Under the pieces are notes generated by a model that was given only the letters and a program-made list of their open reading frames with translations, searched no databases and had not been told where the DNA came from. The translations under genes and the position numbers were made by a program. Positions 3,165 through 19,148 of a stretch of 64,000 bases of DNA are shown here, piece after piece. Source of the stretch: Burkholderiales bacterium (GTDB taxonomy: Bacteria; Pseudomonadota; Gammaproteobacteria; Burkholderiales; JACQAP01); assembly GCA_036384015.1 (NCBI GenBank), contig DASVNF010000100.1, positions 5,952-69,951 of the forward strand, read 5' to 3'. Position 1 is the first letter of the stretch; each line of letters starts with the position of its first letter.

Positions 3165-4031
3165 ATGACAAACACCCTTCTCCTGCTTTCGGCGCTCGGC
3201 ATCCTCGCAATGGCGACCGGCGTCTCCGCCGAACAGCAAGGCGATACGCTTGCGGCGATCAGGAACACGCAGTCCATCAGGCTCGGCTATCTCGACCAGT
3301 CCGTGCCGTTCTCCTTCGTGGACCAGAAGGGAAACCCGCCGCAGGGCTACTCGATTGAACTCTGCCTCAGGGTTGTCGCCGGCATCGAACAGCAGCTCGG
3401 GTTGCAGAAACTCAAGGTGCAATGGGTTCCCCTCACCATGGCGAATCGTTTCGACATGGTGGCGGACGGCAGCGTCGACCTCGAATGCGGCATATCGACC
3501 ATCACCCTGTCGCGCCAGCAGAAGGTGGCTTTCAGCCTGATGACCTGGATAGACGGCGGCAGCTTCGTCGTAAAAGCAGGACGGCCGCACGGCGGCCTGG
3601 GCGATCTCGCCGGCAAGAAAATCGCGGTCATCGCCGGCACCACCACCGAAAGCGCCCTGCGCGATGCGCTGAAGAAGGACTTCATCAAGGCGGACCTCGT
3701 CCTGGTCAAGGAACATCTCGAGGGCCTGGGCGCCTTGGACCAGGGCAGGGCCGACGCCTACGCGGCCGACCAGACGGTGCTGATCGGGCTGGGCCTCGCC
3801 GTCAAGGAGCAGTTGTCCCTGGCCCTCGCCGACCGCAACTTTTCCTTCGAGCCCTACGGGCTGACCCTGAGGCGAAACGACGCTGACTTCAAGCTGGCGG
3901 TCAACCAGGAACTGGCGCGCATCTACCGGACCGGCCAGATCGGCGCGATCTATGACCGCTGGTTCGGCAAGCTGGGCAAACCGTCGTCGATGCTCGCGGC
4001 GATGTTCGCGATCAATGGATTGCCTGAATGA
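3165..4031 (+). CDS. Periplasmic solute-binding protein, family 3 (amino-acid type), orphan
   Basis: Signal peptide ending SAEQQ. Strings IRLGY, PFSF, GYSIELC and VDLECGISTITLSR, with a C-terminal INGLPE. There is no adjacent ABC permease or ATPase gene. Confidence 0.8.
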   Translation: MTNTLLLLSALGILAMATGVSAEQQGDTLAAIRNTQSIRLGYLDQSVPFSFVDQKGNPPQGYSIELCLRVVAGIEQQLGLQKLKVQWVPLTMANRFDMVADGSVDLECGISTITLSRQQKVAFSLMTWIDGGSFVVKAGRPHGGLGDLAGKKIAVIAGTTTESALRDALKKDFIKADLVLVKEHLEGLGALDQGRADAYAADQTVLIGLGLAVKEQLSLALADRNFSFEPYGLTLRRNDADFKLAVNQELARIYRTGQIGAIYDRWFGKLGKPSSMLAAMFAINGLPE

Positions 4032-4306
4032 AAAGCGGCTTACATCGATGCCCCGCACATTGGACTGCGGGACTCCGCACATGCGACAGATGTTGTGTTG
4101 CCAACCGCCGCGCTTAATTTCAGCACTGCTCTCGTCGTACTGGGCGTGGTCTTTCTCATGGCAGGAAGCAGGACAAGTGGACCTATTGGGGAGCAAATAG
4201 AGCGGGCACCCGGTACCCCCCGCGACATGCTGCTTGAAGCTGTCGTCCTGTATGTGGGCGAAGCCTTGCGCCAGGCAGGCCAGCCCCGTGCAATGCGCAC
4301 TGGTGA

Positions 4307-4642
4307 TTACCTGCGGCGTCCTCCACCTCCGGCTCGCGCAGCAGGACGCGGCGCCGGCATGGGCCGCGACGTGGGCGGCTTCGCTATCGGCTGCGCGGGT
4401 TTCACCGGCCGGTCGACGTCCGGCCGATTCGCCGGCGGCGGGCCCACGACGACAGGGGGGCTGCCGTAGTAGCAGCACGGCCCCCAGCCCCATGAGTCAT
4501 AGTAGCCACCTCCCATGTACATGGATCCGTGCACTGATCCGGAACCGTTCGAAGCGCAGCCCGACGCGAAGATGGCGCCGCACAGCATCAACGCGTACGA
4601 CGAGTGACGCACGGGGTTGGACTTGCGGAAGGATTTTTTCAT
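4307..4642 (-). CDS. Small Gly/Pro-rich lipoprotein, hypothetical
   Basis: Lipobox-like AIFASGC after a basic N-terminus. Low-complexity Gly/Tyr/Pro-rich body. Its ATG overlaps the stop of the upstream VOC gene (ATGA). Confidence 0.5.
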   Translation of the reverse strand: MKKSFRKSNPVRHSSYALMLCGAIFASGCASNGSGSVHGSMYMGGGYYDSWGWGPCCYYGSPPVVVGPPPANRPDVDRPVKPAQPIAKPPTSRPMPAPRPAARAGGGGRRR

Positions 4643-5532
4643 TTCTGCCCCCCGTTCGCGTCATCGGCCCCGTCCTGCCAGTTGACGATGCCGAGCACGC
4701 CGCCGCGCGGGTCGGCGATCACCGCAAGATTTCCATCGAGCACGTCCCCGCGCGGCGGTACCAGCACACTGCCCCCGGCGGCGCTCACTTTGTCGAGCGT
4801 GGCGCGCACATCGTCGACCAGCACATACGGCAACCAACCCGGCTGCTGGACGACCTCGGGCTTCGGTACGATGCCGGCCCGTGCGTATCCTTCCGAGGAC
4901 AACACCACGCGCTTGATCGGTTCGCTTGCGCCGGGCGTCGCCCCGTAGCCGGCCAGGCCGCTATAGAACCTGGCGGCCCGCTCGGGCTCGCGCGCCAGCA
5001 GATCCACCCAGAAGAAATCCCCGGCGGCAACCGGCGTATCGGGCCGGTCGCCGCCTTCCGGCTTGAGCACGCCGAACACCGCCCCATCGGGATCGCGGAA
5101 CAGGGCATGGGTTCCCCTTCCCTTGACGGTGGCAGGCGGCACGAGGACGGTACCGCCTTGCTGCTTCACGTAGCGAGCCGCCTTGGCCGGGTCGTCCACC
5201 GAGATCAACGCCAGCCAGCGGGCGCTGCGCTGCGCGCCGGCCGGTGCGGGGCGTTGGAGAATGCCGCCGATGCGCGTGCCTTCGAGTTCTGCGAAGGTAT
5301 ACGACTCCGGTTTATCGCCCACAGTGGAAAACTTCCAGCCGAACACCTCGCCGTAGAACCGGCGCGCAGCGTCGAGATCGTCGGTGACGAGGTCGAACCA
5401 GGAAAATTTTCCGGGAAGATATTTTCCGCCCTGCTCCGCGCGGGCAGCCAGCGATGCTCCCGCCATGAGACCCAGCAATGCGAGCAGCAAGGCATTCCTT
5501 GCGGCGATCTTAACCATCCGTGAAAGATTCAT
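4639..5532 (-). CDS. Secreted VOC/glyoxalase-fold protein (two tandem glyoxalase-like domains)
   Basis: ORF 4639..5604 trimmed to ATG 5532, which begins the signal peptide MNLSRMVKIAARNALLLALLGLMAGASLAARA. The motif FSWFDL..DD...A..FY..VFGW occurs twice. Confidence 0.65.
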   Translation of the reverse strand: MNLSRMVKIAARNALLLALLGLMAGASLAARAEQGGKYLPGKFSWFDLVTDDLDAARRFYGEVFGWKFSTVGDKPESYTFAELEGTRIGGILQRPAPAGAQRSARWLALISVDDPAKAARYVKQQGGTVLVPPATVKGRGTHALFRDPDGAVFGVLKPEGGDRPDTPVAAGDFFWVDLLAREPERAARFYSGLAGYGATPGASEPIKRVVLSSEGYARAGIVPKPEVVQQPGWLPYVLVDDVRATLDKVSAAGGSVLVPPRGDVLDGNLAVIADPRGGVLGIVNWQDGADDANGGQK

Positions 5533-5705
5533 GCGCTTGTCCTCTGCGAAGCCCGCAGGATTCCGTACGACATCATACCTCCCCGAATCCGGTTCCATTT
5601 TCATGTGGGTGCTGCCCCGCAGCAGATCGGATACCCGAAATCCATGACGGTATTGTTATTCCAATTGCGTGAGCGCGATCAAGGATTTCGGCATAACCAC
5701 GCCGA

Positions 5706-5723
5706 ATTGGACTTTGGTCCAAT
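5706..5723. promoter_or_regulatory. 18-bp palindrome ATTGGACTTTGGTCCAAT (candidate operator, copy 3)
   Basis: Same palindrome. It sits in the divergent intergenic region between the VOC gene (start 5532, minus strand) and the porin/decarboxylase operon (start 5886, plus strand). Confidence 0.55.
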
Positions 5724-5885
5724 GGTGTTCGTCATGAGTGTGGCGCAAAGTGGTTTCAGTCGTCGAGGGGTGCTCCGGCAGTCAGCCAAGAGTAACAATA
5801 AAGAAGCGGCAAGTTCGGCCCATCGCTGAAGCCCTGCCATCACGGGAGTGCCCTGATCAGGTTATGACTTGACTGGGGGAAAATC

Positions 5886-7190
5886 ATGAAATCGCTCGCA
5901 CTTCTTCTGGCAGTGACGGCGTTCAGCAGTGGCGCGCTCGCGCAATCCAACGAGGAACTCAAGAAAACCGTCAAGGAGCTCGAGACCCGGGTCAAGACGC
6001 TCGAGCAGCAAAAAGCGGGCGCGCCTGCCACCTCCGAGTCGGGAGCGGCAGTCGTCGCGCCCGGTTCGACCGCCGAGGAAGGCTCACGCGATCCCAACAA
6101 GGCGCGCGTCGAGATCTTTGGCCAGATCATGCTCGACGCCATCTACGACTTCAAACGCGTCGACCCCGACTGGAACGCCACCCTGCGGCCCTCGAAGATC
6201 CCCGTGAACTGCCCTGGCGATGCCGGGTGCGGCAAAGATGGCGAGTCCATCTTCAGTATCCGGCAATCCAAGATTGGATTCAGAGGCTTCATTCCCACCA
6301 GCCTGGGCGAACTCACCACCCTGTTCGACATGGATCTGTTCAACAGCGGCGGGGGCAACACGGAGGCTCGCGTGCTCGATGCGTGGGCCGAGCTCGGCCA
6401 GTTTGGCGCCGGGCAGTACTACACCGTGTTCATGGACATCGACTCCTTTCCCAACACGATCGATTATTGGGGTCCCAACGGCATGGTATTCGTGCGCAAC
6501 CCGCAATTGCGCTATACCCCGTACAACCGCGATGGCATGAAGGTCGCGATCTCCCTGGAAGCGCCGGGTACCGCCATCGACACAGGCAAGATCTCGGAGG
6601 TGGATCCCGCCCTCGGCGCCGGAGTCTCGAGTCGTACGCGCCTTCCTGACCTGATCGCCAGCATCCGCGTGGATCGGGACTGGGGACATGCCCAGGCGGC
6701 GGGGATGATACGCCAGCTGGGGTATGACACGCCCGGCAATCCCGACGCCGAACCGTCCGGATCCGAAACCGGCTACGGCATCAACCTGAGCGGCTCGTTC
6801 AATACCATCGGCAAGAACCGCGTTACCGGCGCGATCGTCTTTGGCCGCGGCATCGCGAGCTACATGAATGACGGCGGTGTAGACCTTGCACCGGACGCCG
6901 GCCTGGCCGCCGAAGCCGTCGAGACCGTCGGCTGGTTCGCCTACTACGATCACTACTGGAACGAGAAATGGAGCAGCTCTGCCGGCGTCAGCGAACACAT
7001 CCAGTCCAACACCGACGGCCAGCTTCCAAACGCGTTCAAGAAAGGCAGCTATGGCTCCGCCAACCTGCTCTTCTATCCGGTAAAGAACGTCATGACCGGC
7101 GTCGAGCTGCTGTGGGGGCGCTACGAGCATAACGACGGCGCCGCCGGCAAGGACCAGCGCGTCCAGTTCTCGGCCAAGTTCACGTTCTAG
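5886..7190 (+). CDS. Outer-membrane porin with N-terminal coiled coil (DcaP-like)
   Basis: Signal peptide ending ALAQS. Coiled-coil segment NEELKKTVKELETRVKTLEQQK. Long beta-rich body ending in FSAKFTF (terminal Phe). Confidence 0.65.
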   Translation: MKSLALLLAVTAFSSGALAQSNEELKKTVKELETRVKTLEQQKAGAPATSESGAAVVAPGSTAEEGSRDPNKARVEIFGQIMLDAIYDFKRVDPDWNATLRPSKIPVNCPGDAGCGKDGESIFSIRQSKIGFRGFIPTSLGELTTLFDMDLFNSGGGNTEARVLDAWAELGQFGAGQYYTVFMDIDSFPNTIDYWGPNGMVFVRNPQLRYTPYNRDGMKVAISLEAPGTAIDTGKISEVDPALGAGVSSRTRLPDLIASIRVDRDWGHAQAAGMIRQLGYDTPGNPDAEPSGSETGYGINLSGSFNTIGKNRVTGAIVFGRGIASYMNDGGVDLAPDAGLAAEAVETVGWFAYYDHYWNEKWSSSAGVSEHIQSNTDGQLPNAFKKGSYGSANLLFYPVKNVMTGVELLWGRYEHNDGAAGKDQRVQFSAKFTF

Positions 7191-7210
7191 CCCCCCCGGA
7201 GCAACATGAC

Positions 7211-9469
7211 ATGGAATTCCTCCAGGCATTCCCGATCGCGATCATCGATGAAGACTATGAAGGCAAGAATGCCGCAGGTCGCGGCATGCGGCAGCTCGCC
7301 GCCGCAATCGAGAAAGAGGGTTTTCGCGTAGTCGCTGGCGTCACTTACGAGGACGCACGGCGCCTGGTCGACGTAATGAACGTCGAGTCATGCTGGCTGG
7401 TATCGGTCGACGGCGCGGAGAATAGCCCGAAACAGTGGCAGATCCTCGAGGAAGTGCTGGCCGCAAAGCGCAGCCGCAACGATCGCCTGCCGATCTTCCT
7501 GTTCGGCGACGAGCGCACCGCGGAAGTGGTTCCCGCCAGCGTCCTGAAGCACGCCAACGCCTTCATGCGCCTGTTCGAGGACTCGCCGGAGTTTCTGGCC
7601 CGTGCAATCGCCCGCTCGGCCCAGCTCTACCTCGAGCGCCTCGCCCCGCCGATGTTCAAGGCGCTGATGGACTACACCCTTCACGCGAGCTACTCGTGGC
7701 ATACCCCTGGCCACGGCGGCGGCACCGGCTTCCGCAAGAGTCCCGTCGGCACGCTGTTCTATGAGTTCTTCGGCGAGAACACGCTGCGCTCCGATGTCTC
7801 GGTGTCGGTGGGGCAGCTCGGCTCGCTGCTCGACCATACCGGACCGATCGCCGCCGGTGAGCGCAACGCCGCGCGCATCTTCGGCACCGACGAGACGCTG
7901 TTCGTGGTGGGCGGCACCTCGACAGCCAACAAGGTCATCTGGCACGGCATGGTGGGTCGAGGGGACCTTGTGCTGTGCGACCGCAACTGTCACAAGTCGA
8001 TCCTGCACTCGCTGATCATGACCGGCGCGACGCCGATCTACCTGGTGCCTTCGCGCAACGGCCTGGGCATCATCGGCCCGATTTCGCGCGACCAGTTCAC
8101 CCCCGCGTCGATCAAGAAGAAGATCGCCGCCAGCCCGTTCGCGAAGCAGACCAGCGGCAAGGTGCGCCTGATGGTGATCACCAATTCCACCTACGACGGC
8201 CTGTGCTACAACGTCGACGCCATCAAGGAAAGCCTGGGCGACGCGGTCGAAGTGTTGCATTTCGACGAGGCCTGGTACGCCTACGCCAACTTCCACGAAT
8301 TCTACGACGGGTTTCACGGCATTTCGTCGACCAATCCGGCGCGCGCGCCGCACGCCATCACCTTTGCCACGCATTCCACCCACAAGCTGCTCTGCGCCCT
8401 GTCGCAGGCCTCGATGATCCACGTGCAGCATGGCGAGACGCAGCGTCTTGACATGACCCGCTTCAACGACGCCTTCATGATGCATACCTCGACCTCGCCG
8501 CAGTACGGCATCATCGCCTCGTGCGACGTCGCCGCCGCGATGATGGAACAGCCTGGCGGTCGCGCACTGGTGCAGGAGATCATCGACGAGGCGCTCAGCT
8601 TCCGGCGCGCGATAACCGCGGTGAAGCAGCAGGTCAAGGGCTGGTGGTTCGATGTCTGGCAGCCCGACGCGATGGCGAAAAATCCGGCCGCAGACAAGGC
8701 GCGCTGGGTGCTCAAGCCGAAGGACCAGTGGCACGGCTTCGAGGATCTCGCCGCGAACCACGTCCTGGTCGACCCGATCAAGGTCACCATCCTCACGCCG
8801 GGCCTGACCGCCAACGGCACGATGCAGAAGAGCGGCATTCCGACAGCGGTGGTGGTGAAGTTCCTGTCGTCGCGGCGCATCGAGATCGAGAAGACCGGCC
8901 TGTACTCCTTCCTGGTCTTGTTCTCCATGGGCGTCACCAAAGGCAAGTGGAGCACGCTCGTTACCGAGCTGCTCAACTTCAAGGATTTGTACGACGCCAA
9001 CGCCCCGCTCAAGCGCGCGCTGCCGGCGCTTGCCGCGGCGCACCCGGAAGTCTACGAGCGAATGGGCCTCAAGGACCTGTGCGACGGCATCCACAAGGTT
9101 TATCACGACGACAAGGTGGCCAAGGCGCAGAAGGACATGTACACCGCGCTGCCCGAAATGGCCCTGCGCCCGGCCGACGCCTACGACCACCTGGTCCACG
9201 GCCGCGTGGAGACCGTGGAGATCGACAAGCTGATGAACCACATCCTGGCAGTAATGCTGGTGCCCTATCCACCGGGGATCCCGCTGATCATGCCAGGCGA
9301 GCGCCTGACCAAGGCCACCAAGTCGATCCAGGACTATCTCCTGTATGCACGCGAGTTCGACACCAAATTCCCGGGATTCGAGACCGACATCCACGGCCTG
9401 CGATTCGAACCCGCAGAAGGCGGCCGGCGCTACCTGGTGGACTGCGTGAAGGAAAAGGGCGGCAAATGA
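7211..9469 (+). CDS. Orn/Lys/Arg decarboxylase family (wing domain + PLP fold type I), lysine decarboxylase-like (CadA/LdcC/LdcA clade)
   Basis: 752 aa. Strings SWHTPGHGGG, GTSTANK, DRNCHKS, TNSTYDG and the PLP-lysine motif THSTHKLL. CadA-like strings WWFDVWQP, EKTG, PYPPGIPL and PGFETDIHG, as I recall the E. coli CadA sequence. Confidence 0.8.
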   Translation: MEFLQAFPIAIIDEDYEGKNAAGRGMRQLAAAIEKEGFRVVAGVTYEDARRLVDVMNVESCWLVSVDGAENSPKQWQILEEVLAAKRSRNDRLPIFLFGDERTAEVVPASVLKHANAFMRLFEDSPEFLARAIARSAQLYLERLAPPMFKALMDYTLHASYSWHTPGHGGGTGFRKSPVGTLFYEFFGENTLRSDVSVSVGQLGSLLDHTGPIAAGERNAARIFGTDETLFVVGGTSTANKVIWHGMVGRGDLVLCDRNCHKSILHSLIMTGATPIYLVPSRNGLGIIGPISRDQFTPASIKKKIAASPFAKQTSGKVRLMVITNSTYDGLCYNVDAIKESLGDAVEVLHFDEAWYAYANFHEFYDGFHGISSTNPARAPHAITFATHSTHKLLCALSQASMIHVQHGETQRLDMTRFNDAFMMHTSTSPQYGIIASCDVAAAMMEQPGGRALVQEIIDEALSFRRAITAVKQQVKGWWFDVWQPDAMAKNPAADKARWVLKPKDQWHGFEDLAANHVLVDPIKVTILTPGLTANGTMQKSGIPTAVVVKFLSSRRIEIEKTGLYSFLVLFSMGVTKGKWSTLVTELLNFKDLYDANAPLKRALPALAAAHPEVYERMGLKDLCDGIHKVYHDDKVAKAQKDMYTALPEMALRPADAYDHLVHGRVETVEIDKLMNHILAVMLVPYPPGIPLIMPGERLTKATKSIQDYLLYAREFDTKFPGFETDIHGLRFEPAEGGRRYLVDCVKEKGGK

Positions 9470-11811
9470 TCCCCGGCAAGGTCAAGCCGCCGACGATCCC
9501 GATCCCGTTCCACAAGATGCTGAAGGTGGTTGCGATCGTCGATCCCGGCGATCGCCAGAGCCGGGAACTGGTTGGCCAGATCACAGCAGCCAATTTCGAG
9601 GTGGAGGTCACCGAACGCTGCGAGCGCGACGTCTTCGAGGATGCGGACGTCGGCGCCTATATCGTACTGGTGGATGGGGAACGCCTGGAGACGGCGCGCA
9701 AGATGGCGTCGGAAGTGCGCGCAATCGGTTTTCGCACACCGCTCTGGGCACTGGCCAATTCCCGCAGGATATCCGACCTGGCCATCGTCAGTGGCCTTGG
9801 CGAAGTCGAGGGCTTCATTTATCTCGGGCAGCAGAGCCCCGCTTTCTACGCAAAGCAGGTCGTAGCTAGCGTCACCCGCTACGGCATGAGCCTGCTTCCC
9901 CCATTCTTCGGCGGCCTGATGGCTTACGACGGCGAGGCAACCATCGCCTTCGACTGCCCGGGCCACCAGGGTGGCCAGTTCTATCGCAAGTCGCCCGCGG
10001 GCCAGCTGTTCTTCCGCCATTTCGGCGAGAACATCTTCCGCAATGACCTGTGCAATGCCGACGTGGAGCTGGGCGACCTGCTGATCCATGAAGGCGTGGC
10101 GGCGGAAGCGCAAAAACACGCCGCCCGCGTGTTCGGCGCCGACCGCACTTATTTCGTCCTCAACGGCACCAGTTCGTCCAACAAGGTCGTCACCGGCTCG
10201 GTGTTGCGCCAGGGCGACCTGGTGCTGTTCGATCGCAACAACCACAAGTCCATGCACCAGGGCGGCTTGGTCCAGGCCGGCGCGATCCCGGTGTTCCTGC
10301 CCACGGCGCGCAACGGCTTCGGCATGATCGGACCGGTCGACTGGGAGGCGTGGGACGAGAAGTTCCTGCGCGAGCAAATCCGCGCCAATCCTTTGGTCAA
10401 GGACAAGGATCGGGCGAAGGCAGAACGCCCGTTCCGCCTCGCCTGCATCCAGCTTGCCACCTACGACGGCACCGTATACAACGTGCGCAAGGTCATGGAG
10501 AAGATCGGGCATCTTTGCGACTACATCCTCTGGGATGAGGCCTGGATCGGCTACAACGCCTTCCATCCGCTGTATGAAGACCACAGCCCGATGCGCATCA
10601 CGAAGCTCGGGCCCGAAATGCCGGGCCTCTTTTCCACCCAGTCCGTGCATAAACAGGGCGCCGGCTTTTCACAGGCCTCGCAGATCCACAAGCGCGACGA
10701 GCACATCCGCGGCCAGAAACGCTACGTCGAGCACAAGCGCTTCAACGAGGCCTTCCTGATGAATGCCTCGACCTCGCCGTTCTACCCGCTGTTCGCCTCG
10801 CTCGACGTCAACGCCAAGGTGCACGAAGGCAAGGCCGGCGAGATGCTGTGGGACCGCTGCATCGCGCTTGGCATCGAAGCCCGCAAGAAGCTGCGCGAAT
10901 TCGTGCGCCACTACGAGAAAAGCGGGAAGGGCAAGGAAGAACAATGGTTCTTCGATCCCTTCGTCCCCGATGTCGTCGCGCTCGACGGGAACGAGAAGCG
11001 CGCCTGGGAAGACATCCCCACACAGCAGCTCAAGCGTGACCAGCGCTGCTGGAACTTCCAGCCCGACGCAAAATGGCATGGCTACGCCGGCATGGCCGAC
11101 GGATACGCAATGGTCGACCCGAACAAGCTGATGCTGCTCACCCCGGGCATCGACCGGAAGAGCGGCGGCTACCTCGAATTCGGGGTGCCGGCAACGGTAG
11201 TGGCCAATTACCTGCGCGAGCAACGGATCGTTCCCGAGAAATGCGACCTCAACAGCATCCTGTTCCTGATGACGCCGGCGGAGGACGAAAGCAAGCTCAA
11301 CTCGCTGATCGGCAAGCTGGTGCGCTTCAAGGACCTGTGGGATCGCGACGCCCCGCTGGGCGAAGTCCTGCCAACGCTGGCAGGTACGCACGCGGAGCGC
11401 TATGACGGCTACACCCTGCGCAAGGTCTGCCGCGAAATGCACGATTTCTACCGCAAGGCGAACATCAAGGAGCTGCAGCGCTTGAGCTTTCGCGCTTCAA
11501 GTTTCCCGGAACTTGCCTGTACCCCGCAGGAGGCGTACCGCGCGCTGGTCGGCAACGAGGTCGACTACGTGCCGATGGAGCAGGCCAGGGGCCGCATCGC
11601 CGCCACCCTCGCCCTGATCTATCCCCCGGGTATCGGGGTGGTGGTGCCCGGGGAACGGTGGGACGCGCGAGCCCAGCCGATGATGGACTACCTGGCTGCG
11701 TTCGAGGAATCGTTCAACCGCTTTCCTGGCTTCAACTACGAAGTACAGGGCATTTACCAGGAAAGAATTGACGGCCGCATCAAATTCCACACTTACGTAG
11801 TCAAGGAGTAA
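9466..11811 (+). CDS. Orn/Lys/Arg decarboxylase family, ornithine decarboxylase-like (SpeC/SpeF clade)
   Basis: In-frame part of ORF 8521..11811. ATG 9466 overlaps the upstream stop (ATGA), and ATG 9517 is an alternative start. SpeF-like strings: FDCPGHQGG, DLCNADVELGDLLIHEG, TYFVLNGTSSSNKVV, FDRNNHKS, TQSVHKQGAGFSQASQIHKRD, STSPFYPLFASLDVNAK and VPEKCDLNSILFLMTPAED. Confidence 0.8.
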   Translation: MIPGKVKPPTIPIPFHKMLKVVAIVDPGDRQSRELVGQITAANFEVEVTERCERDVFEDADVGAYIVLVDGERLETARKMASEVRAIGFRTPLWALANSRRISDLAIVSGLGEVEGFIYLGQQSPAFYAKQVVASVTRYGMSLLPPFFGGLMAYDGEATIAFDCPGHQGGQFYRKSPAGQLFFRHFGENIFRNDLCNADVELGDLLIHEGVAAEAQKHAARVFGADRTYFVLNGTSSSNKVVTGSVLRQGDLVLFDRNNHKSMHQGGLVQAGAIPVFLPTARNGFGMIGPVDWEAWDEKFLREQIRANPLVKDKDRAKAERPFRLACIQLATYDGTVYNVRKVMEKIGHLCDYILWDEAWIGYNAFHPLYEDHSPMRITKLGPEMPGLFSTQSVHKQGAGFSQASQIHKRDEHIRGQKRYVEHKRFNEAFLMNASTSPFYPLFASLDVNAKVHEGKAGEMLWDRCIALGIEARKKLREFVRHYEKSGKGKEEQWFFDPFVPDVVALDGNEKRAWEDIPTQQLKRDQRCWNFQPDAKWHGYAGMADGYAMVDPNKLMLLTPGIDRKSGGYLEFGVPATVVANYLREQRIVPEKCDLNSILFLMTPAEDESKLNSLIGKLVRFKDLWDRDAPLGEVLPTLAGTHAERYDGYTLRKVCREMHDFYRKANIKELQRLSFRASSFPELACTPQEAYRALVGNEVDYVPMEQARGRIAATLALIYPPGIGVVVPGERWDARAQPMMDYLAAFEESFNRFPGFNYEVQGIYQERIDGRIKFHTYVVKE

Positions 11812-11814
11812 AGC

Positions 11815-14115
11815 ATGGCGCTTCCCGGTACAGGTCCGCTTCGTCCTCGCGTACTGATTGTCGATGACGCGCTTGCCCGGCCCGACACGGCAATCGGCCG
11901 CGCTGCCGAAGGCATTACGTCGGCCCTCGCGGCACGCAACTGCGACGTCGTCCGCGCACTGTCGTTCGAGGACGGGGCGGCAGTTGTTGGTTTCGATGCC
12001 TCGCTGCGCACCGTTCTTCTGAACTGGCACCTCGGCACCGAGGGAAAGACCGTGCCCGCCCAGGCGTCCTCCCTGCTGCACAAGCTGCGCGAACGGCACC
12101 CCAACGTGCCCGTATTCCTGACTGCGAATCGCAAGCTGGTCAGGGACAACATGAGCATCGAAGTCGCCGAGCTGGTGGACGAATTCGTCTGGCTGCTGGA
12201 GGACACTGCGGATTTTGTCGCCGGCCGCGTGATGGCAGCGATCAACCGCTACCAGGCAAAGCTCCTGCCACCTTATGCCCGTGCGCTCGCCACTTACTCG
12301 CAACTGCGCGAACACTCGTGGTCGGCACCGGGGCATCAGGGCGGCATTGCATTCACCAAGCTGCCCGCCGGGCGCGCGTTCTTCGACTTCATGGGCGAGA
12401 ACCTGTTTCGCACCGACATGGGCATCGAGCGCGGCGCGCTCGGCTCGCTGCTCGACCATACCGGACCCGTGGCGGAGAGCGAGAAGTACGCGGCGCGCGT
12501 CTTTGGAGCACACCGCAGCTATTCCGGTGTGGTCGGAACCTCGGGGTCGAACCGCAGCATCATGCAGGCCTGCATGAAAGCCGACGATCTGGTCGTGCTG
12601 GACCGCAACTGCCACAAGTCCATCGAGCAGGGCCTGATGCTGACCGGCGCGCGTCCCGTCTACATGGTGGCCTCGCGCAACCGTTACGGCATCATCGGGC
12701 CCATCGCACCGTCCGAGATGGATCCGAAGACCATCGTGGCCAAGGCGAAGGCAGGGCCGCTCACCAGGAAGTTTTCCGGCCGGAAGCCGGTATACGCTGT
12801 CGTCACGAACAGCACCTACGACGGCATGTGCTACAACTCCGCGCGCGTCGAAGCGCTGCTCGGGAAGTCCAGTGACAGGGTGCATATGGACGAAGCGTGG
12901 TACGGCTACGCGCGATTCAACCCGATGTACGAGAACCACTTCGCGATGCGCGGCGATCCGGCATCGCACAAGGGCCCGACGGTGTTCGCGACGCATTCGA
13001 CGCATAAGCTGCTCGCGGCGCTGTCGCAGGCGTCCTACATCCATGTGCGCGACGGCAAAGGGGCGATCGACCACCACCGCTTCAACCAGGCGTACATGAT
13101 GCACACCAGCACCTCGCCCCTCTACGCGATCGTCGCGTCGAACGACATCACGACCGCGATGATGGACGGTAGCGGAGGACAGTCCCTGACACAGGAAACG
13201 ATCAACGAAGCGGTCGACTTCCGGCAGGCGGTCGGCCGGGTGCGGCGCGAATTCTCGAAGAAGAAAGACTGGTTCTTCAAGCCGTGGAACGCCGAAACAG
13301 TGAAGCTCTCGAACGGGCGCAAGGTTGCATTCGAGGACGCCCCGGCCGAAAGCCTTTGCAACAGCCAGGAGCCGTGGGTGCTGCGTCCCGGCGACAAATG
13401 GCACGGCTTCGGGGATATTGCCGACGACTGGTGCATGCTCGACCCGATCAAGGTCAGCATCCTCTCGCCGGGGATGGGCGACGACGGCAAGCTGGAGAAG
13501 ACTGGCGTGCCGGCGGCCCTGGTGAACGCCTGGTTCAACCGCTTCGGCATCGTGCCGACGCGCGTAACCGATTTTCAGGTGATGTTTCTGTTCTCGATCG
13601 GCATCACGCGCGGCAAGTGGGGCACCCTGCTCACCAACTTGCTCGCATTCAAGCGCGATTACGACGCCAATCTTCCGGTGTCCCATTCGCTGCCGGAGAT
13701 CGCTGCGCAATACCCGCAGCGTTACGGCAAGATCGGCATGCGCGACCTGGGTAACGAGCTGTTCGAGTACCTGCGCGAGAACCGCCCCGGCGACGTGCTG
13801 AATGACGCCTACAAGACGCTCCCAGCGATGGACATGACGCCACGCGAAGCGTACGAGCGCCTGGTGTCCGGCGAAGTCGAACTGGTGCCGACCGACAAGC
13901 TCGCGCGGCGCACCGCAGCCAACGGCGTGATGCCCTACCCGCCCGGCATCCCTATGCTGATGTCCGGGGAGAACTTCGGTGGCAGGGATTCGCCCCAGAT
14001 CGAGTATCTGCGCAGCATGCAAAACCGGGAGAAACAGTTCCCCGGCTTCAGCGGAGTGATAGAAGGCGCGGAAATGATCGACGGGATCTTCCATGTCCTG
14101 TGCGTGAAAAAGTAG
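11815..14115 (+). CDS. adiA: Biodegradative arginine decarboxylase-like (AdiA clade of the Orn/Lys/Arg decarboxylase family)
   Basis: AAGGAG RBS. Near-colinear with E. coli AdiA as I recall it: LEDTADFVAGR, SWSAPGHQGG, GENLFRTDMGIERG, GTSGSNRSIMQAC, DRNCHKSIEQGLMLTGARPVYM, ATHSTHKLL, TDFQVMFLFSIGITRGKWGTL, PYPPGIPMLMSGENFG and C-terminal DGIFHVLCVKK. Confidence 0.8.
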   Translation: MALPGTGPLRPRVLIVDDALARPDTAIGRAAEGITSALAARNCDVVRALSFEDGAAVVGFDASLRTVLLNWHLGTEGKTVPAQASSLLHKLRERHPNVPVFLTANRKLVRDNMSIEVAELVDEFVWLLEDTADFVAGRVMAAINRYQAKLLPPYARALATYSQLREHSWSAPGHQGGIAFTKLPAGRAFFDFMGENLFRTDMGIERGALGSLLDHTGPVAESEKYAARVFGAHRSYSGVVGTSGSNRSIMQACMKADDLVVLDRNCHKSIEQGLMLTGARPVYMVASRNRYGIIGPIAPSEMDPKTIVAKAKAGPLTRKFSGRKPVYAVVTNSTYDGMCYNSARVEALLGKSSDRVHMDEAWYGYARFNPMYENHFAMRGDPASHKGPTVFATHSTHKLLAALSQASYIHVRDGKGAIDHHRFNQAYMMHTSTSPLYAIVASNDITTAMMDGSGGQSLTQETINEAVDFRQAVGRVRREFSKKKDWFFKPWNAETVKLSNGRKVAFEDAPAESLCNSQEPWVLRPGDKWHGFGDIADDWCMLDPIKVSILSPGMGDDGKLEKTGVPAALVNAWFNRFGIVPTRVTDFQVMFLFSIGITRGKWGTLLTNLLAFKRDYDANLPVSHSLPEIAAQYPQRYGKIGMRDLGNELFEYLRENRPGDVLNDAYKTLPAMDMTPREAYERLVSGEVELVPTDKLARRTAANGVMPYPPGIPMLMSGENFGGRDSPQIEYLRSMQNREKQFPGFSGVIEGAEMIDGIFHVLCVKK

Positions 14116-14160
14116 CACCCGAATGGCAGCGATCGAAACACCAAAAAAGGGGAGATGATC

Positions 14161-16413
14161 ATGGCAGCCAGCACCACGAAAAAAATGTCCTTGATGCAGC
14201 TGACGATCCTGGTCTCCGTCAACATGATGGGGTCCGGCATCATCATGCTGCCGACGAACATGGCCCAGGTCGGCGCGATCTCGCTGCTGTCCTGGATCGT
14301 GACTGCCGTCGGGTCGATGCTGATCGCGTACGGCTTCGCCCAGGCAGGCATTTTCAACAACCGGCCGGGCGGCATGTCGGCCTACGCCGAGGATGCCTAC
14401 GGCAAGCCCGGCTACTTCATGGTGTTCCTGCTCTATTTCTTCTCCCTCGCCATCGGCAACGTCGCGATCGCGATTTCCGCGGTGGGCTATCTTTCCGGCT
14501 TTTTTCCAGGCCTTTCGGCGACGCCGATCGCGACCTGCCTCAGCGTGATCGGCCTGATCTGGCTCACGTCCGTCGCCAATTTCGGCGGCCCTTCGATCAC
14601 CGGCAGGATCGGCTCCGTCACGGTGTGGGGCGTCATCATCCCGGTTGCCGGCCTGTCCATCATCGGCTGGTTCTGGTTCAAGAGCGACACCTTCATGCAG
14701 GCGTGGAATCCGCAGGGAATGAGCATCGGCGAAGGCATGGGCTCGAGCATTGCGCTGACGCTATGGGCCTTCCTGGGCATGGAGTCCGCGGCACAGAACT
14801 CCGATGCCGTGGAAGATCCCAAGCGCAACGTTCCACTCGCGTGCATGTTCGGCACGCTGGGCGCAGCGGTCATCTATATCCTCTCGACAACCGTGATCCA
14901 GGGCATTGTTCCCAACGCCGAGCTGGCAGAATCGACGGGCCCGTTCGCGCTTGCGTACGCCCACATGTTCAATCCGACCGTCGGCTCGATCATCATGGCA
15001 CTGGCGATCCTGGCCTGCCTCGGTTCGCTCCTCGGCTGGCAGTTCACCATCTCGCAAACCGCGAAGGCCGCCGCCGACGATCGCATGTTTCCTAGGTTTT
15101 TCTCGAAGCTCAACAAGCTGGGTGCCCCGGTGATGGGATTGATCATCATGGGCGTTGTCCAGTCGGTGATGGCGCTATCCACCATCTCGCCCAGCCTGAG
15201 CGAGCAGTTCAGCGCGCTGGTCAATCTTGCCGTGGTCACCAACGTGGTGCCCTACATCATTGCGCTCTCCGCGCTGGTCGTAATGATGAAAAAGGCGGGC
15301 GTCACCAGCGGGGTTTACAAGCGCAACGTCATCATAGGAGTGGGCGCCATGCTCTATTCTACGTACGCGATCTACGCCTCGGGCAAAGATGCCGTCCTTG
15401 GCGGGATGATCATCGTGGCACTCACCTACATCCTCTGGGGATTCCTCGCCCCACGCTTTGCGTCGGTCAAACCAGCGGCCGCTCCCGCTTCCGCCGGCGG
15501 TGTCGCCGCCTCCGGCATTGCGCTCGCTGCGCTGCTGGCGCTCGTGCTGCTGCTTGCCGGAACGCAACCCGCCGAGGCTGCCGGTACGATGGACCGCATC
15601 AAGAGTTCGGGCAAGCTGAAACTGGGCTATAGCGCCGACACCCGCCCCTTTACCTTTGACGGAGGATCCGGTCCGGCCGGCTTCGCGATCGACCTGTGCA
15701 TGGCGATCGCCGGCGAAGCGAAGGCGGCCCCTGGCATGGGGGCGCTAGCGGTGGAATTCGTCCCACTGGCGCATGACGAAGGGCCGCAGGCCGTGGCGCA
15801 AGGCAAGGTCGACATCTCGTGCGAGCCGACCGTGCCGACGAGGACCTCGCGCAAGCAGGTCTCGTACTCGATCCCGGTTTTCGCAAGCGGGGTCGGCGTT
15901 GTTGTCAGCAAGGACGCCTCCTCACGACTCAAGAACATTCTCTCCGGCCAAACGCCGCCAACAAGCCCCACCTGGCGCGCCAATGCGGACAAGCTTATTC
16001 GGGAAAGCACGTTTTCAGTGATTGAAGGCACGCAAAGCCAGCGCGTATTCGAGCAGCGGATGAGTCAGTTGAAGCTCATTCCCAAGGTCTCGACCGTCAA
16101 GGATTTCGACGCCGGCATTCAAGACGTCATCGACGGGCGTGCCAATGCCTTCTTCGGCAACCGCGCAATCCTTCTGGACGCGGTCAAGCGCAAAGGCGGG
16201 TCGGCTCACCTGGAGGTGCTCGACCGGCTGTTCACGAATGAAACCTATGCTTTTGCGGTTCCACGCGGTGACGAGGATTTCCGGCTCCTGGTGGACGGAG
16301 CCTTGAGCCGGCTGTTCCTGTCCAATGAACTTGGAGACGTCTACGGGAAGTGGTTCGGACTGCTCAACGAGAATGCGCGTTCCCTGTTCCAGCTGAATGC
16401 GCTCCCGGACTGA
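14161..16413 (+). CDS. potE: PotE-like basic amino acid/polyamine antiporter (APC family) fused to a C-terminal family-3 periplasmic solute-binding domain
   Basis: The N-terminal about 435 aa are colinear with E. coli PotE as I recall it: QLTIL..VNMMGSGIIMLPT, SWIVTAVGSM, GNVAIAISAVGY, ANFGG..ITG, VTVWGVIIPV, GWFWF, LTLWAFLG.ES, NVP, LGWQFTI and LVNLAVVTNV.PYI. A hydrophobic segment VAASGIALAALLALVLLLAG plus AEA follows. The SBP domain then has KLKLGY, FAIDLC and a C-terminal LNALPD. Start is ATG 14161 (GGGGAG RBS), with ATG 14155 as an alternative. Confidence 0.8.
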   Translation: MAASTTKKMSLMQLTILVSVNMMGSGIIMLPTNMAQVGAISLLSWIVTAVGSMLIAYGFAQAGIFNNRPGGMSAYAEDAYGKPGYFMVFLLYFFSLAIGNVAIAISAVGYLSGFFPGLSATPIATCLSVIGLIWLTSVANFGGPSITGRIGSVTVWGVIIPVAGLSIIGWFWFKSDTFMQAWNPQGMSIGEGMGSSIALTLWAFLGMESAAQNSDAVEDPKRNVPLACMFGTLGAAVIYILSTTVIQGIVPNAELAESTGPFALAYAHMFNPTVGSIIMALAILACLGSLLGWQFTISQTAKAAADDRMFPRFFSKLNKLGAPVMGLIIMGVVQSVMALSTISPSLSEQFSALVNLAVVTNVVPYIIALSALVVMMKKAGVTSGVYKRNVIIGVGAMLYSTYAIYASGKDAVLGGMIIVALTYILWGFLAPRFASVKPAAAPASAGGVAASGIALAALLALVLLLAGTQPAEAAGTMDRIKSSGKLKLGYSADTRPFTFDGGSGPAGFAIDLCMAIAGEAKAAPGMGALAVEFVPLAHDEGPQAVAQGKVDISCEPTVPTRTSRKQVSYSIPVFASGVGVVVSKDASSRLKNILSGQTPPTSPTWRANADKLIRESTFSVIEGTQSQRVFEQRMSQLKLIPKVSTVKDFDAGIQDVIDGRANAFFGNRAILLDAVKRKGGSAHLEVLDRLFTNETYAFAVPRGDEDFRLLVDGALSRLFLSNELGDVYGKWFGLLNENARSLFQLNALPD

Positions 16414-16450
16414 ATGACAGGCACTGCGTTTGCGGTCAGCTGCGGTTGAA

Positions 16451-17761
16451 ATGACAGCTACGCCAAACGCGGCCAAGAGCCTGGGGCTCGCCGCCTGTAC
16501 CGCGGTAGTGGTGGGGAACATGGTGGGTTCGGGCTTCTACCTGTCGCCCACCGCCACGGCACCCTACGGCCTGCTCGCGATCTTCGCCTGGAGCGTGATG
16601 GGCGCTGGTGCAATCTGCCTCGGCCTTACCTTCGCGCGCCTGGCGCGCATCGCGCCGGCGACCGGCGGACCGTTCGCCTACACGCGCATGGCGTACGGTG
16701 ACTTCGCCGGCTTCCTTGTCGCCTGGGGTTACTGGATCTCCATCTGGGCGTCGCTGCCGGCAATCGCGTTCGCCTTCGCCGGCGCACTCATAAACCTTTT
16801 TCCCGCCCTGCAGAACAGAACCATGGCACTGGCGCTGACGCTCGCCCCAATCTGGGCCGTGGTGCTGATAAACCTGCGCGGCGTGAAGACGGCCGGCATC
16901 TTCGCCGAGGTCACGACCTACTCCAAGCTCGTTCCCTTCGCCGCGGTCGCGCTGGTCGGCTTGTTTTACGTGCGCAGCGAGAACCTGCCGGCCTTCAATC
17001 CCACAGGAGAGTCGCTGCTCGCCTCCAGTGCGGCGCTCGCGCCGCTCGTGATGTTCGCCTACCTTGGCCTGGAGTCGGCAACCGTTCCGGCGGGCGATGT
17101 ACGCGACGCGACGCGCACCATCCCCCGTTCGACCATCATCGGTATCAGCATTGCCGCCGTGCTCTACGTGCTCGGCACCATAGTGGTTTTCGGCGTCGTG
17201 CCGCCCGACCAACTGCTGAAGTCGGTGGCCCCGTTCACCGACGCCGCGCGGATCATGTGGGGCGACTGGGGCGCCGGCGCGATCGCCGCCGCCGTGATTG
17301 TCTCTTCTATCGGCGCATTGAACGGCTGGACGCTCATGATGGGGCAAGTCCCCATGGCGGCCGCGCAGGAGGGCCTGTTCCCTCCCGCCTTCGGCCGGCT
17401 GTCAGCAAGCGGCGTCCCAGCGCTCGGCATCGTAATCTCGGCCATGCTTACCACCGCGATGGTGTTGGTCCAGACCTGGGGCGCACCGGGGGTGCGCGCG
17501 TTCTACAATCTGGTGGTCAGCCTGAGCACGATGGCGGCGGTGATCCCCTATGCGTTCTGCGCGCTGGCGGTAGGCTTGGTCGCCGCGCGCAACGGCGGAA
17601 AGGCGCGTATCGGTCCGGTCGAAATCATCGCATTCGTGTTCGCGATGTTCACCGTCTACGGCTGCGGCGCGGAAGCCGTCCTGTATGGCCTGCTGCTGCT
17701 CTTGCTTGGAATTCCGGTGTACGTGTGGCAGCGCCAGGGCACGCCTCCGGCGACTGGCTAG
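16451..17761 (+). CDS. APC-superfamily amino acid/polyamine transporter (second transporter of the operon)
   Basis: About 12 predicted hydrophobic segments. APC signature GNMVGSGFYLSP and GGPFAYTRMAYGDFAGFLVAWGYW. The ORF track starts at TTG 16430, and ATG 16451 was chosen. Confidence 0.75.
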   Translation: MTATPNAAKSLGLAACTAVVVGNMVGSGFYLSPTATAPYGLLAIFAWSVMGAGAICLGLTFARLARIAPATGGPFAYTRMAYGDFAGFLVAWGYWISIWASLPAIAFAFAGALINLFPALQNRTMALALTLAPIWAVVLINLRGVKTAGIFAEVTTYSKLVPFAAVALVGLFYVRSENLPAFNPTGESLLASSAALAPLVMFAYLGLESATVPAGDVRDATRTIPRSTIIGISIAAVLYVLGTIVVFGVVPPDQLLKSVAPFTDAARIMWGDWGAGAIAAAVIVSSIGALNGWTLMMGQVPMAAAQEGLFPPAFGRLSASGVPALGIVISAMLTTAMVLVQTWGAPGVRAFYNLVVSLSTMAAVIPYAFCALAVGLVAARNGGKARIGPVEIIAFVFAMFTVYGCGAEAVLYGLLLLLLGIPVYVWQRQGTPPATG

Positions 17762-17993
17762 GCGCGCGCGAGCAACAGCCTCCTTGCGTTCCTTCGCAAA
17801 CTGTCGACATCGAGCATGCCGGTATGCCGGCGCCGCGGGCATTTCAATATGTCCATGGACTGAAGCAATCCCTGGAAAAAGTGCCCCGGCAAGTCCTGGA
17901 CCCGGCATCTTCCGGAGTTGACCACTTCTGGATCATTGCTCCCCGCCCCGCTCTCCCGATAGCATTGCATTCTTGCATCAGAAGGAAATCTTG

Positions 17994-18338
17994 ATGAGGT
18001 ATGTCCCTTCCATCGTTGGCGCCTGGCTCCTGATTGCGGCATCAGGGGCATTCGAGATTGTCTTTTCTGTCCTCCTCAAGGAGTCCGACGGCTTCACCAG
18101 GCCGATCCCCACTGCGATCGGCATAACCGCCGCGCTCCTGAGCATCTGGCTGATGACGATCGCCCTGCGAACTCTTCCGCTCGGGCCGTCGTACGCGGTC
18201 TGGGCCGGAATCGGGACGCTGGGAACGGCCATTGCGGCAGTCGTCATCTACTCGGAATCGGTGACCGTCCCAAAGACGGTATTCATGCTTTTCATCATCA
18301 TCGGTATCGTCGGCCTGCAGCTGCACGGCCGGGACTAG
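17994..18338 (+). CDS. gdx: SMR-family small multidrug/guanidinium exporter (SugE/Gdx-like)
   Basis: 114 aa with 4 hydrophobic helices. Conserved membrane Glu in AFEIVFSVLLK, and PLGPSYAVWAGIGTLGTA resembles SugE PVGTAYAVWTGIGAVGAA. ATG 17994 has an AAGGA RBS. Confidence 0.75.
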   Translation: MRYVPSIVGAWLLIAASGAFEIVFSVLLKESDGFTRPIPTAIGITAALLSIWLMTIALRTLPLGPSYAVWAGIGTLGTAIAAVVIYSESVTVPKTVFMLFIIIGIVGLQLHGRD

Positions 18339-18464: not shown

Positions 18465-19148
18465 ATGATTTCAATGAAAAGCGCCCTGATCCAGCTGGCC
18501 GCTGCCGCCCTGACTATGGCCTGGATGGCCGGAGCATCCGGCCAGGATGTCACCGATCGCGCCGGCAAGTGGGAAGGCCACTTCAACATCCTCTACGGCG
18601 ACTCGCAGAACGTCACCGGCGACAACGGCTCGTCGGCGGACGTCGACAGCAGCGCCGGCTGGGGTTTCGGCTTCGGCTACAACTTCAATGACCACTGGGC
18701 ACTGGAGGGCAACTTCAGCTACCGGGATGCCGACTACCGCGCCACCGTCGCGCCCGGCGCCGGCAATCCCAATCTGCCGCAATCGATCTCCGGCACCATG
18801 GAAACCTCCACGCTTGCGTTCAATGCCACGTATAACCTGCTGGCCAGGTCGTTCACGCCGTTCGTAACCGGCGGGGTCGGCGGCACCTACGTGGACACCA
18901 ACATTCCCGACGGGCTTGCAGTACCGGTGTGCTGGTGGGATCCCTGGTGGGGGTACTACTGCGCTCCGGCCTATCCCACAAAGGCGGAAACCTACTTCAG
19001 CTACAACGTCGGCGCCGGGGTGCGCTGGGAATCCAAGGGTTCGCTGTTCCTGCGGGCCCTGGTCAGCGAGCAATGGATCGACGTGGGTGGCGACATCGGG
19101 ACCCCCGATTTCCTGCAGTTTCGTCTGGACATCGGCACGCGTTTCTGA
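18465..19148 (+). CDS. Outer-membrane beta-barrel protein (small porin/OmpA-like barrel family)
   Basis: GGAGG RBS. Signal peptide ending MAGASGQD. Gly/aromatic-rich alternating strands and a C-terminal LDIGTRF. Confidence 0.7.
   Translation: MISMKSALIQLAAAALTMAWMAGASGQDVTDRAGKWEGHFNILYGDSQNVTGDNGSSADVDSSAGWGFGFGYNFNDHWALEGNFSYRDADYRATVAPGAGNPNLPQSISGTMETSTLAFNATYNLLARSFTPFVTGGVGGTYVDTNIPDGLAVPVCWWDPWWGYYCAPAYPTKAETYFSYNVGAGVRWESKGSLFLRALVSEQWIDVGGDIGTPDFLQFRLDIGTRF

Follow-up and report, generated by a model that had tools for sequence, protein, structure and literature searches.

Why would an amino-acid antiporter carry a substrate-binding protein at its own C-terminus? This question is raised by one gene in a stretch of 64,000 nucleotides (nt) from a Burkholderiales bacterium (contig DASVNF010000100.1, positions 5,952 to 69,951), which we call the window and whose numbering is used for its features. 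The gene joins a PotE-class antiporter of the APC family to a family-3 substrate-binding protein (SBP). We find that antiporters of this clade consistently have the SBP as their partner, and that the two form a constant gene pair of which the fusion is one version. The pair is real, widespread and apparently undescribed. We give a probability of about 55% to the reading that a PotE-type basic-amino-acid/polyamine exchanger has its own dedicated periplasmic binding protein, both being made as one precursor.

One reading frame joins the antiporter and the SBP

The + strand holds a single open reading frame (ORF) without interruption at 14155..16413, with 752 amino acids (aa). The Shine-Dalgarno sequence GGGGAG ends at 14154. 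It lies 6 nt ahead of ATG 14161 but abuts ATG 14155, so that ATG 14161 is likely the start of the fusion gene, giving a 750-aa product. This product is identical to the deposited protein P0001 from a Burkholderiales metagenome-assembled genome (MAG). Residues are numbered throughout in the 752-aa frame that begins at ATG 14155. Pfam places AA_permease_2 at residues 12-409 (E 1.5e-48) and SBP_bac_3 at residues 488-735 (E 2.4e-17). Each part that the original prediction, made from the sequence of the window, had described was found where it had been placed, to within ~3 nt. The gene has these parts:

14161..16413, + strand: fusion gene of antiporter, linker, predicted internal signal peptide and SBP (ORF, Shine-Dalgarno sequence, identity to P0001)
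14161..15459, + strand: PotE-class APC antiporter core with 12 helices, residues 3-435 (NF007938, similarity to AdiC)
15460..15501, + strand: Ala/Pro-rich cytoplasmic linker, residues 436-449, hypervariable, with predicted local distance difference test (pLDDT) <50
15502..15561, + strand: 13th hydrophobic segment VAASGIALAALLALVLLLAG, residues 450-469, putative signal-peptide h-region (junction profile, homology to the signal peptides of free SBPs)
15562..15579, + strand: c-region TQPAEA, residues 470-475, with a predicted signal-peptidase-I site after A475 (A-E-A / A-G; family profile)
15580..16410, + strand: family-3 (class II) amino-acid-type SBP domain, residues 476-752, starting with A476 (Pfam SBP_bac_3, fold)
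15697..15822, + strand: span bounded by the invariant cysteine pair Cys515 (15697-15699) and Cys556 (15820-15822)
15967..15978, + strand: P605-x-W607-R608, invariant in 118/118 fused sequences, in a ~15-residue subfamily-specific insertion that AncCDT-1 lacks in the alignment

The predicted absence of any stop or frameshift between the two halves was confirmed in the window sequence. The junction was also checked against independent assemblies, where the architecture was the same. Both domains are present in all of the best 120 database clusters (712-775 aa, 60-100% identity, 97-100% coverage). Their sources are independent assemblies (NCBI, JGI, ENA, Logan), with Ottowia, Sphingomonadaceae and Gemmatimonadales genomes among them. 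More than 118 homologues with 60-86% identity have the complete architecture. In an alignment of 118 sequences, the median identity to the window protein is 82% in the antiporter half and 43% in the SBP half. AlphaFold2, run with this alignment, gave a mean pLDDT of 83 with both domains confident, and a predicted TM-score of only 0.57. Foldseek returned no solved chain that covers both halves.

An assembly error or a frameshift could in principle fuse two ordinary genes in the window contig, since relatives with two separate genes exist and at least one public contig (locus L007) is full of frameshifts. We consider the chance of this to be close to nil, and a local artefact was ruled out. The identical protein has been deposited, 118 full-length fused homologues come from independent projects, and the fusion is in frame in 22/69 independently assembled loci of the sample described below. 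The junction also shows a coherent organization into n-, h- and c-regions.

In L007 itself the decarboxylase, antiporter and SBP genes (3607-8320) are split into many short ORFs, and the locus was left out. It looks like an indel-rich long-read assembly, of which the 439-aa 'SBP' P0277 would be an artefact.

The SBP accompanies the antiporter

Loci that are found through the SBP or through the fusion bias the association between the two. We therefore fetched 80 metagenome loci by the antiporter half alone (76-85% identity; 80 of at least 587 matches). They were classified as follows:

Fused in frame: 22 loci
Separate SBP gene directly downstream: 47 loci
No SBP: 0 loci
Contig end too near to judge: 11 loci

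Thus the SBP is fused to the antiporter or directly follows it in 69/69 judgeable loci, and the split form is commoner than the fused form. In the split loci the gap from stop to start has a median of 32 nt (interquartile range 25-36), an AGGAG-type Shine-Dalgarno sequence is present, and the SBP carries a signal peptide. A decarboxylase gene lies directly upstream of the antiporter in 58/64 classified loci where this could be judged. The pair is spread over Alpha-, Beta- and Gammaproteobacteria, Myxococcota and Gemmatimonadota.

Loci found by other routes have the same parts. In five other fused loci (L001-L005), the fusion adjoins at least one and up to three genes for decarboxylases of this family. 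When the SBP domain was searched by itself, its nearest relatives (≤67% identity) were free proteins of ~300-320 aa with a normal N-terminal signal peptide. In the free-SBP loci L006, L008 and L009 (Pseudomonas sp. MG-9), decarboxylases, an antiporter of ~445-460 aa and then the SBP are encoded by separate genes. In the DNA of the split form, the antiporter gene ends in a clean stop; a spacer with AAAGGAGAG follows, and then the ATG and a signal peptide with basic, hydrophobic and A-x-A parts. We also scanned species-representative genomes with a 12-sequence SBP alignment, a pattern-limited scan that gave 23 loci, several of them unrelated distant SBPs. Split pairs were found in Variovorax sp. 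dw_308, Pseudomonas laurentiana JCM 32154, Paucibacter sp. Y2R2-4, a Dongia MAG and a Steroidobacteraceae MAG, and one fused pair in a Myxococcota MAG.

Two of the fused loci, L004 (9265-12753) and L005 (2714-5901), have genes for arginine deiminase, ornithine carbamoyltransferase and carbamate kinase directly after the fusion. No ArcD-type antiporter was called in either locus, and the PotE-like exchanger there may also serve arginine/ornithine exchange. In L001 (P0050 genome), the decarboxylase upstream of the fusion (6214-7968) has 584 aa and lacks the N-terminal wing domain; on the other side of the fusion, downstream, there is a full-length paralogue of 767 aa.

The SBP could be unlinked to the function of the antiporter, serving an ABC importer elsewhere or having another role, with adjacency and fusions being neutral. 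Family-3 SBPs usually belong to ABC systems, and the free ones are named as such in databases; moreover, two members of the subfamily are orphans away from any antiporter. This explanation must face an SBP in 69/69 judgeable antiporter loci across the five groups named above, short gaps between the genes and repeated in-frame fusion. Nor were ABC genes present in the neighborhoods whose gene calls we examined: there were no ABC permease or ATPase genes in the window cluster, among the gene calls and Pfam matches of L001-L009, or among the neighbors scanned in L015 and L023. We regard a functionally unlinked SBP as very improbable.

The fused proteins are named only as antiporters ('putrescine-ornithine antiporter'), with no mention of the SBP domain. 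The free partner SBPs go under 'ABC transporter substrate-binding protein' or, wrongly, under 'putrescine:ornithine antiporter'. The latter name is used by JGI for PF00497-only SBPs of ~300-336 aa (P0281, P0302, P0311, P0322, P0329, P0332, P0340 and P0350), and it looks like an annotation transfer from the fused proteins. We found no description of a pairing or fusion of an APC/LeuT-fold transporter with an SBP in the full-text literature searched, coverage of which is incomplete, so that a mention in TCDB or InterPro is possible.

The junction resembles a retained signal peptide

The original prediction had read the joint as an Ala/Pro linker followed by a signal-peptide-like hydrophobic segment with an A-x-A motif, and this held, with the linker at residues 436-449, the segment at 450-469 and TQPAEA at 470-475. 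The window junction consists of K439, which is the only basic residue ahead of the hydrophobic core in the linker, then a core of 20 residues and then T-Q-P-A-E-A. Across homologues the linker is hypervariable in both sequence and length, with 22-58 residues from F435 to the -1 site. AlphaFold predicted a helix at 453-468 in the 13th segment with low confidence and unpacked against the core.

To profile the junction, we used the aligned Ala475 as the anchor for 111 fused junctions, no two of them identical. Position -1 is Ala in 101/111 (0.63 bits of entropy), whereas the neighboring position -2 is hypervariable (3.28 bits; His, Ser, Glu, Gln). Position -3 is Ala in 86/111 and small or aliphatic in 107/111. 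Pro occupies position -4 in 73/111 and position -6 in 78/111. Positions -1, -3, -4 and -6 are the sole conserved positions of an otherwise hypervariable linker. K or R is found at -22/-23, and Gln, Ala or Gly at +1. Each of the 15 positions from -7 to about -21 is at least 79% hydrophobic or small, and 13 of them reach at least 88%; a charged residue occurs in this h-region only at -20, -19, -11 and -10, in 1-8% of junctions. Across seven loci, the codon of the -1 Ala varies over all four possibilities. Judged by this profile, the junction has the n-, h- and c-regions of a canonical signal-peptidase-I substrate.

The anchored profile replaced a simpler site test, the best (-3,-1) score per sequence stretch, which was rejected: random Ala-rich stretches of the antiporter core scored nearly equally. 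Two other routes of export or attachment were also rejected. Lipoprotein anchoring of the SBP was dropped because no lipobox was seen in the junctions or free signal peptides inspected by eye, and Tat export because no twin-arginine motif was seen ahead of the hydrophobic core in the junctions.

Internal cleavable signals are rare in bacteria, and the putative signal peptide of the window protein is internal, after residue 435 of a 12-helix protein, rather than N-terminal. The 13th segment could instead be a permanent signal-anchor, with the SBP tethered at the periplasmic mouth of the antiporter, which would raise the local substrate concentration and fix a 1:1 stoichiometry. The hydrophobic core has a median of 15 residues in fused proteins and 13 in free ones, and 23% against 3% have at least 20 residues; this comparison is a trend only, as the rule-based site finder matched the aligned site in 43/99 fused junctions. 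The core of the window protein, with 20 uncharged residues, can span the bilayer and fits a permanent anchor. The AlphaFold helix at 453-468 agrees with tethering, and the repeated fixation of the fusion suggests that fusion itself may be advantageous. Tethered family-3 domains are known in GlnPQ-type ABC importers. However, an anchor does not need P-x-P-A-x-A, and yet only these linker positions are conserved. The split relatives clearly employ a free SBP, and the stretch that follows the site, with ~6 to 37 residues, is too variable in length to suggest a fixed geometry. We consider a permanent anchor possible but unlikely.

We favor cleavage over tethering because the motif is conserved while being needless for a pure anchor, and because split relatives use a free SBP. 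From the junction profile, we lean somewhat towards cleavage of the fused junction across the family. For the window protein, we put cleavage at even odds, because its hydrophobic core has 20 residues.

Repeated changes between the fused and split states

Trees of the antiporter domain were built by neighbor joining, without support values. For the first sample, which was biased, at least 5 changes separate the interleaved fused and split states. The unbiased tree of 70 taxa requires at least 9 state changes and has an inferred split root; random labels gave a mean of 19.4 changes and never fewer than 15. The interleaving means that the fusion arose or reverted repeatedly and that both forms work.

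The small subclade of the window protein is sister to a split clade. Compared with its closest split relatives, the window DNA lacks ~75-95 nt, depending on the relative. In the relatives, the missing stretch spans the last codons of the antiporter with its stop, then the ribosome-binding site, and then the start of the SBP gene with the ATG and the initial codons of the signal peptide. Since this stretch is absent and the split SBPs have their signal peptide at the same place, the 13th helix is shown to derive from the signal peptide of the SBP. The original prediction had proposed exactly this origin, and the split relatives, with a normal N-terminal signal peptide at that place, bear it out.

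The antiporter half is PotE-class by one of two models and by fold

Full-length alignment to PotE, as originally predicted, holds at the profile level. With the NCBIfam PotE model NF007938, whose cutoff is 409 bits, the score is 676 bits, and residues 6-437 match model positions 3-433 of 438. The AdiC, CadB and histidine-histamine antiporter models score far under their own cutoffs for this half. The closest solved relative by sequence is AdiC (300 bits), and Foldseek gave a TM-score of 0.83 to AdiC 5j4i, normalized to the target. The predicted 12-helix core of the PotE class was thus upheld by both the model and the fold match.

The residues equivalent to the AdiC substrate site are invariant in the 118 sequences: G26-S27-G28, Y94, N102, W204, E210, W295 and Y367. 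In the alignment to AdiC, the G-S-G corresponds to S26/G27, and the others to Y93, N101, W202, E208, W293 and Y365, respectively. As for PotE, an ornithine decarboxylase (NF010092) is encoded in the same co-directional cluster; the immediate neighbor is an arginine decarboxylase. By one curated model and by its predicted fold, the antiporter half is PotE-class, yet it differs from an ordinary PotE. Its substrate range may be broader than putrescine/ornithine, given the three decarboxylases of the cluster.

The SBP half resembles amino-acid-binding proteins

The C-terminal half was predicted to be a complete family-3 SBP domain, and it is one: SBP_bac_3 covers residues 488-735 on a bilobed class-II fold. 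PF00497 scores 63.4 bits against a gathering score of 26.4, and the pLDDT is ~90 over the domain. This half has a bilobed fold, and Foldseek and phmmer matched it to DEBP, AncCDT-1, AncQR, GlnBP and ArgBP. The closest solved relative by sequence is AncCDT-1, an arginine-binding ancestral protein (76 bits), and the nearest solved SBP relatives bind arginine, glutamine or glutamate.

Cys515 and Cys556 are present in 118/118 fused and ~208/212 free relatives. They probably form a disulfide, which would indicate an oxidizing, periplasmic location. Because the free relatives are exported and the cysteine pair is invariant, we place the working SBP domain in the periplasm. Most free members also have both the cysteine pair and the P-x-W-R insertion.

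The residues of the ligand site were assigned by sequence alignment only. In the alignment to AncCDT-1, R566 (117/118) and R565 (68/118) lie at the end of the helix that binds the alpha-carboxylate, and D/E669 (112/118) takes the position of the Asp that binds the alpha-ammonium group. This makes an alpha-amino acid a likelier ligand of the SBP than a polyamine, and the neighboring decarboxylase genes suggest Arg, Orn and Lys.

The SBP might instead be a periplasmic sensor, whose ligand- or pH-dependent closure gates the antiporter in the manner of ionotropic glutamate receptors or signals elsewhere. The exchangers of the E. coli acid-resistance decarboxylase systems are pH-gated. Family-3 domains are sensor modules in channels and kinases, and long multi-SBP proteins are among the distant matches (P0240, P0250). 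The conserved P-x-W-R insertion could be an interaction surface, and no docking of the SBP was predicted. On the other hand, the residues that bind the amino-acid backbone are conserved as in transport SBPs. A free SBP, as found in 47/69 loci, would be a poor allosteric gate unless stably bound, and no signaling genes are consistently linked. We consider a sensor role improbable.

The fusion gene lies in a decarboxylase cluster

The fusion is the fifth gene of a co-directional array at 5886-17761, with gaps of 2-45 nt. The other genes of the array and the two that follow it are:

5886..7190, + strand: DcaP-like outer-membrane porin, first gene of the cluster (Pfam DcaP 60 bits, Porin_2 34 bits)
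7211..9469, + strand: wing-domain Orn/Lys/Arg-family decarboxylase with a lysine-type best match (OKR_DC_1_N, OKR_DC_1, OKR_DC_1_C; LdcC 709 bits, below the cutoff of 968)
~9472..11811, + strand: ornithine decarboxylase, start codon approximate (NF010092 928 bits against a cutoff of 794; three OKR_DC Pfam domains)
11815..14115, + strand: biodegradative-type (AdiA-class) arginine decarboxylase (NF011603 1200 bits against a cutoff of 1167; three OKR_DC Pfam domains)
16430..17761, + strand: second, unfused APC transporter, 16 nt downstream of the fusion (AA_permease_2 182 bits; AdiC 269 bits, far below the cutoff of 574)
17973-18338, + strand: small multidrug resistance (SMR) family gene, after the cluster on the same strand
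18465-19148, + strand: outer-membrane beta-barrel protein gene, after the cluster on the same strand

Compared with the separate E. coli systems, it is unusual to have three decarboxylases for basic amino acids in what looks like a single operon. A DcaP-like gene also lies ahead of the decarboxylases in L004, L007 and L008 (3/9 loci with gene calls). The second APC transporter has no SBP of its own. A comparable second APC is found in L019, L030 and L032, in the order APC, SBP, decarboxylase, APC. SMR proteins can export guanidinium or polyamine-like cations, and it is conceivable that the SMR gene is tied to amine export.

A promoter scan inside the cluster gave 0 promoter-like sites, and terminator-like sites were at the level of shuffled sequence, which is uninformative. 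Long antisense ORFs are present, e.g. one of 873 aa on the - strand at 11497-14118, opposite the arginine decarboxylase gene. They are stop-codon-poor shadows in a genome of 62-65% G+C and not genes.

A proposed mechanism

We propose the following course for the fused protein. The 12-helix antiporter would insert with its C-terminus in the cytoplasm. The original Sec signal peptide of the SBP would then insert as a 13th span and carry the SBP domain into the periplasm. Signal peptidase I would cut after Ala475, and each precursor would yield one antiporter with 13 spans and one free SBP. Most relatives make this pair of products from adjacent genes.

Arg, Orn and Lys would enter through the porin of the cluster. 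The SBP would bind them by its family-3 alpha-carboxylate/alpha-amino site and pass them to the outward-open exchanger. In the cytoplasm, the arginine, ornithine and lysine-type decarboxylases would each consume one proton, and the exchanger would export agmatine, putrescine or cadaverine in return. The SBP would add high affinity at low substrate and bias the exchange to amino acid in, amine out, because it recognizes a carboxylate that the amine products lack. The physiological role would be acid resistance and/or energy conservation.

Several observations weigh against this reading, besides the long hydrophobic core of the junction described above. A second, older PotE model (TIGR04299) scores 556.8 against a cutoff of 560, 3 bits short. 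The antiporter core is almost without insertions relative to AdiC, with no obvious added docking or periplasmic loop, and AlphaFold2 gave the SBP no confident placement on the antiporter, the linker and the 13th helix having pLDDT <50. SBPs of the same subfamily occur at L015 2431-3315 and L023 5941-6804, 45-47% identical to the window domain, without an antiporter nearby; neither orphan has APC, decarboxylase or ABC transporter genes in its neighborhood. The window SBP retains R566 but has R565S (15847-15849), R585S (15907-15909) and D669N (16159-16161). S585 is unique among the 118 sequences, and N669 is common to four close relatives, with Ser in a fifth. To judge from these substitutions, the SBP of the window subclade may have a changed ligand or affinity, or may be under relaxed constraint. 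Finally, SBP coupling may need an elevator-type transporter (PMC12344293), and the APC fold is a rocking bundle.

Comparison with known systems

A close parallel to the whole cluster is found in E. coli. SpeF-PotE, AdiA-AdiC and CadA-CadB likewise have the gene for a wing-domain pyridoxal-phosphate decarboxylase beside that of an APC amino-acid/amine exchanger. By analogy, the logic of the window cluster is likely the same: amino acid in, proton-consuming decarboxylation, amine out. The E. coli decarboxylase/antiporter modules are not known to have a binding protein, whereas here an SBP is always attached or adjacent. Unlike the E. coli modules, the present clusters have up to three decarboxylases and, in the window and in 3/9 loci, a porin gene; some also include genes of the arginine deiminase pathway or for a second antiporter.

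Two known arrangements resemble the tethered form. GlnPQ-type ABC importers carry covalently fused family-3 binding domains, and the OpuA type has a C-terminally fused substrate-binding domain. In these importers, too, a membrane transport domain is fused to a binding domain from this SBP family, and the binding domain faces outside. The fusion described here has no ABC transmembrane or ATPase part, and its halves are joined by a signal peptide that was retained behind a secondary carrier of 12 helices and is apparently cleavable. In the eukaryotic pairs of an SLC7 light chain with a single-span SLC3 heavy chain, an APC-fold exchanger works with an extra span that bears a large extracellular domain. 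The SLC3 ectodomain is glucosidase-like, does not bind substrate and is not homologous to an SBP, and the heavy chain is a separate, disulfide-linked polypeptide.

A precedent for the cleaved form is the FbcH cytochrome b-c1 precursor of Bradyrhizobium japonicum, in which a polytopic protein, an internal signal peptide and a periplasmic domain are processed into two proteins. The proteins and the function, a respiratory complex, are unrelated to those here, where cleavage is predicted from the A-x-A motif.

Secondary, non-ABC carriers with a genetically coupled SBP are a further point of comparison. Before 2025, TRAP and TTT were the only transporters known to rely on a soluble SBP; TAXI-GltS was then proposed as a further SBP-dependent class, argued from tight gene linkage and natural fusions (PMC12344293). 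Our argument has the same form as that for TAXI-GltS. The membrane partner here is a LeuT-fold/APC antiporter, not DctQM, TctAB or a GltS elevator-type symporter, and the SBP belongs to family 3, which is normally ABC-associated, not to DctP, TAXI or TctC. The window system is a member of none of these families, yet by analogy it may work like them.

Significance

The chances are about balanced that this is the first SBP-dependent system on a LeuT-fold rocking-bundle APC carrier, the first on an antiporter and the first with an ABC-type family-3 SBP, with the fused members being polyproteins that release the SBP stoichiometrically by an internal signal-peptide cut. TRAP, TTT and TAXI-GltS are all elevator-type, which has been taken as a possible mechanistic requirement (PMC12344293). 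If true, an APC-SBP system contradicts the proposed elevator requirement for SBP coupling (PMC12344293), and a conserved SBP partner of an APC/LeuT-fold exchanger makes this idea directly testable. The system is experimentally accessible, as split pairs occur in cultured Pseudomonas, Variovorax and Paucibacter strains.

A fusion that evolved repeatedly through a retained signal peptide would be a clean natural system in which to study how bacteria process internal signal peptides. The pair also exposes an annotation problem, seen in the names given above for the fused and the free proteins. For decarboxylase systems, the finding would add a design principle, namely high-affinity, carboxylate-selective substrate capture. 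With it, soil bacteria could run proton-consuming exchange at low amino-acid levels while avoiding futile re-uptake of the amine.

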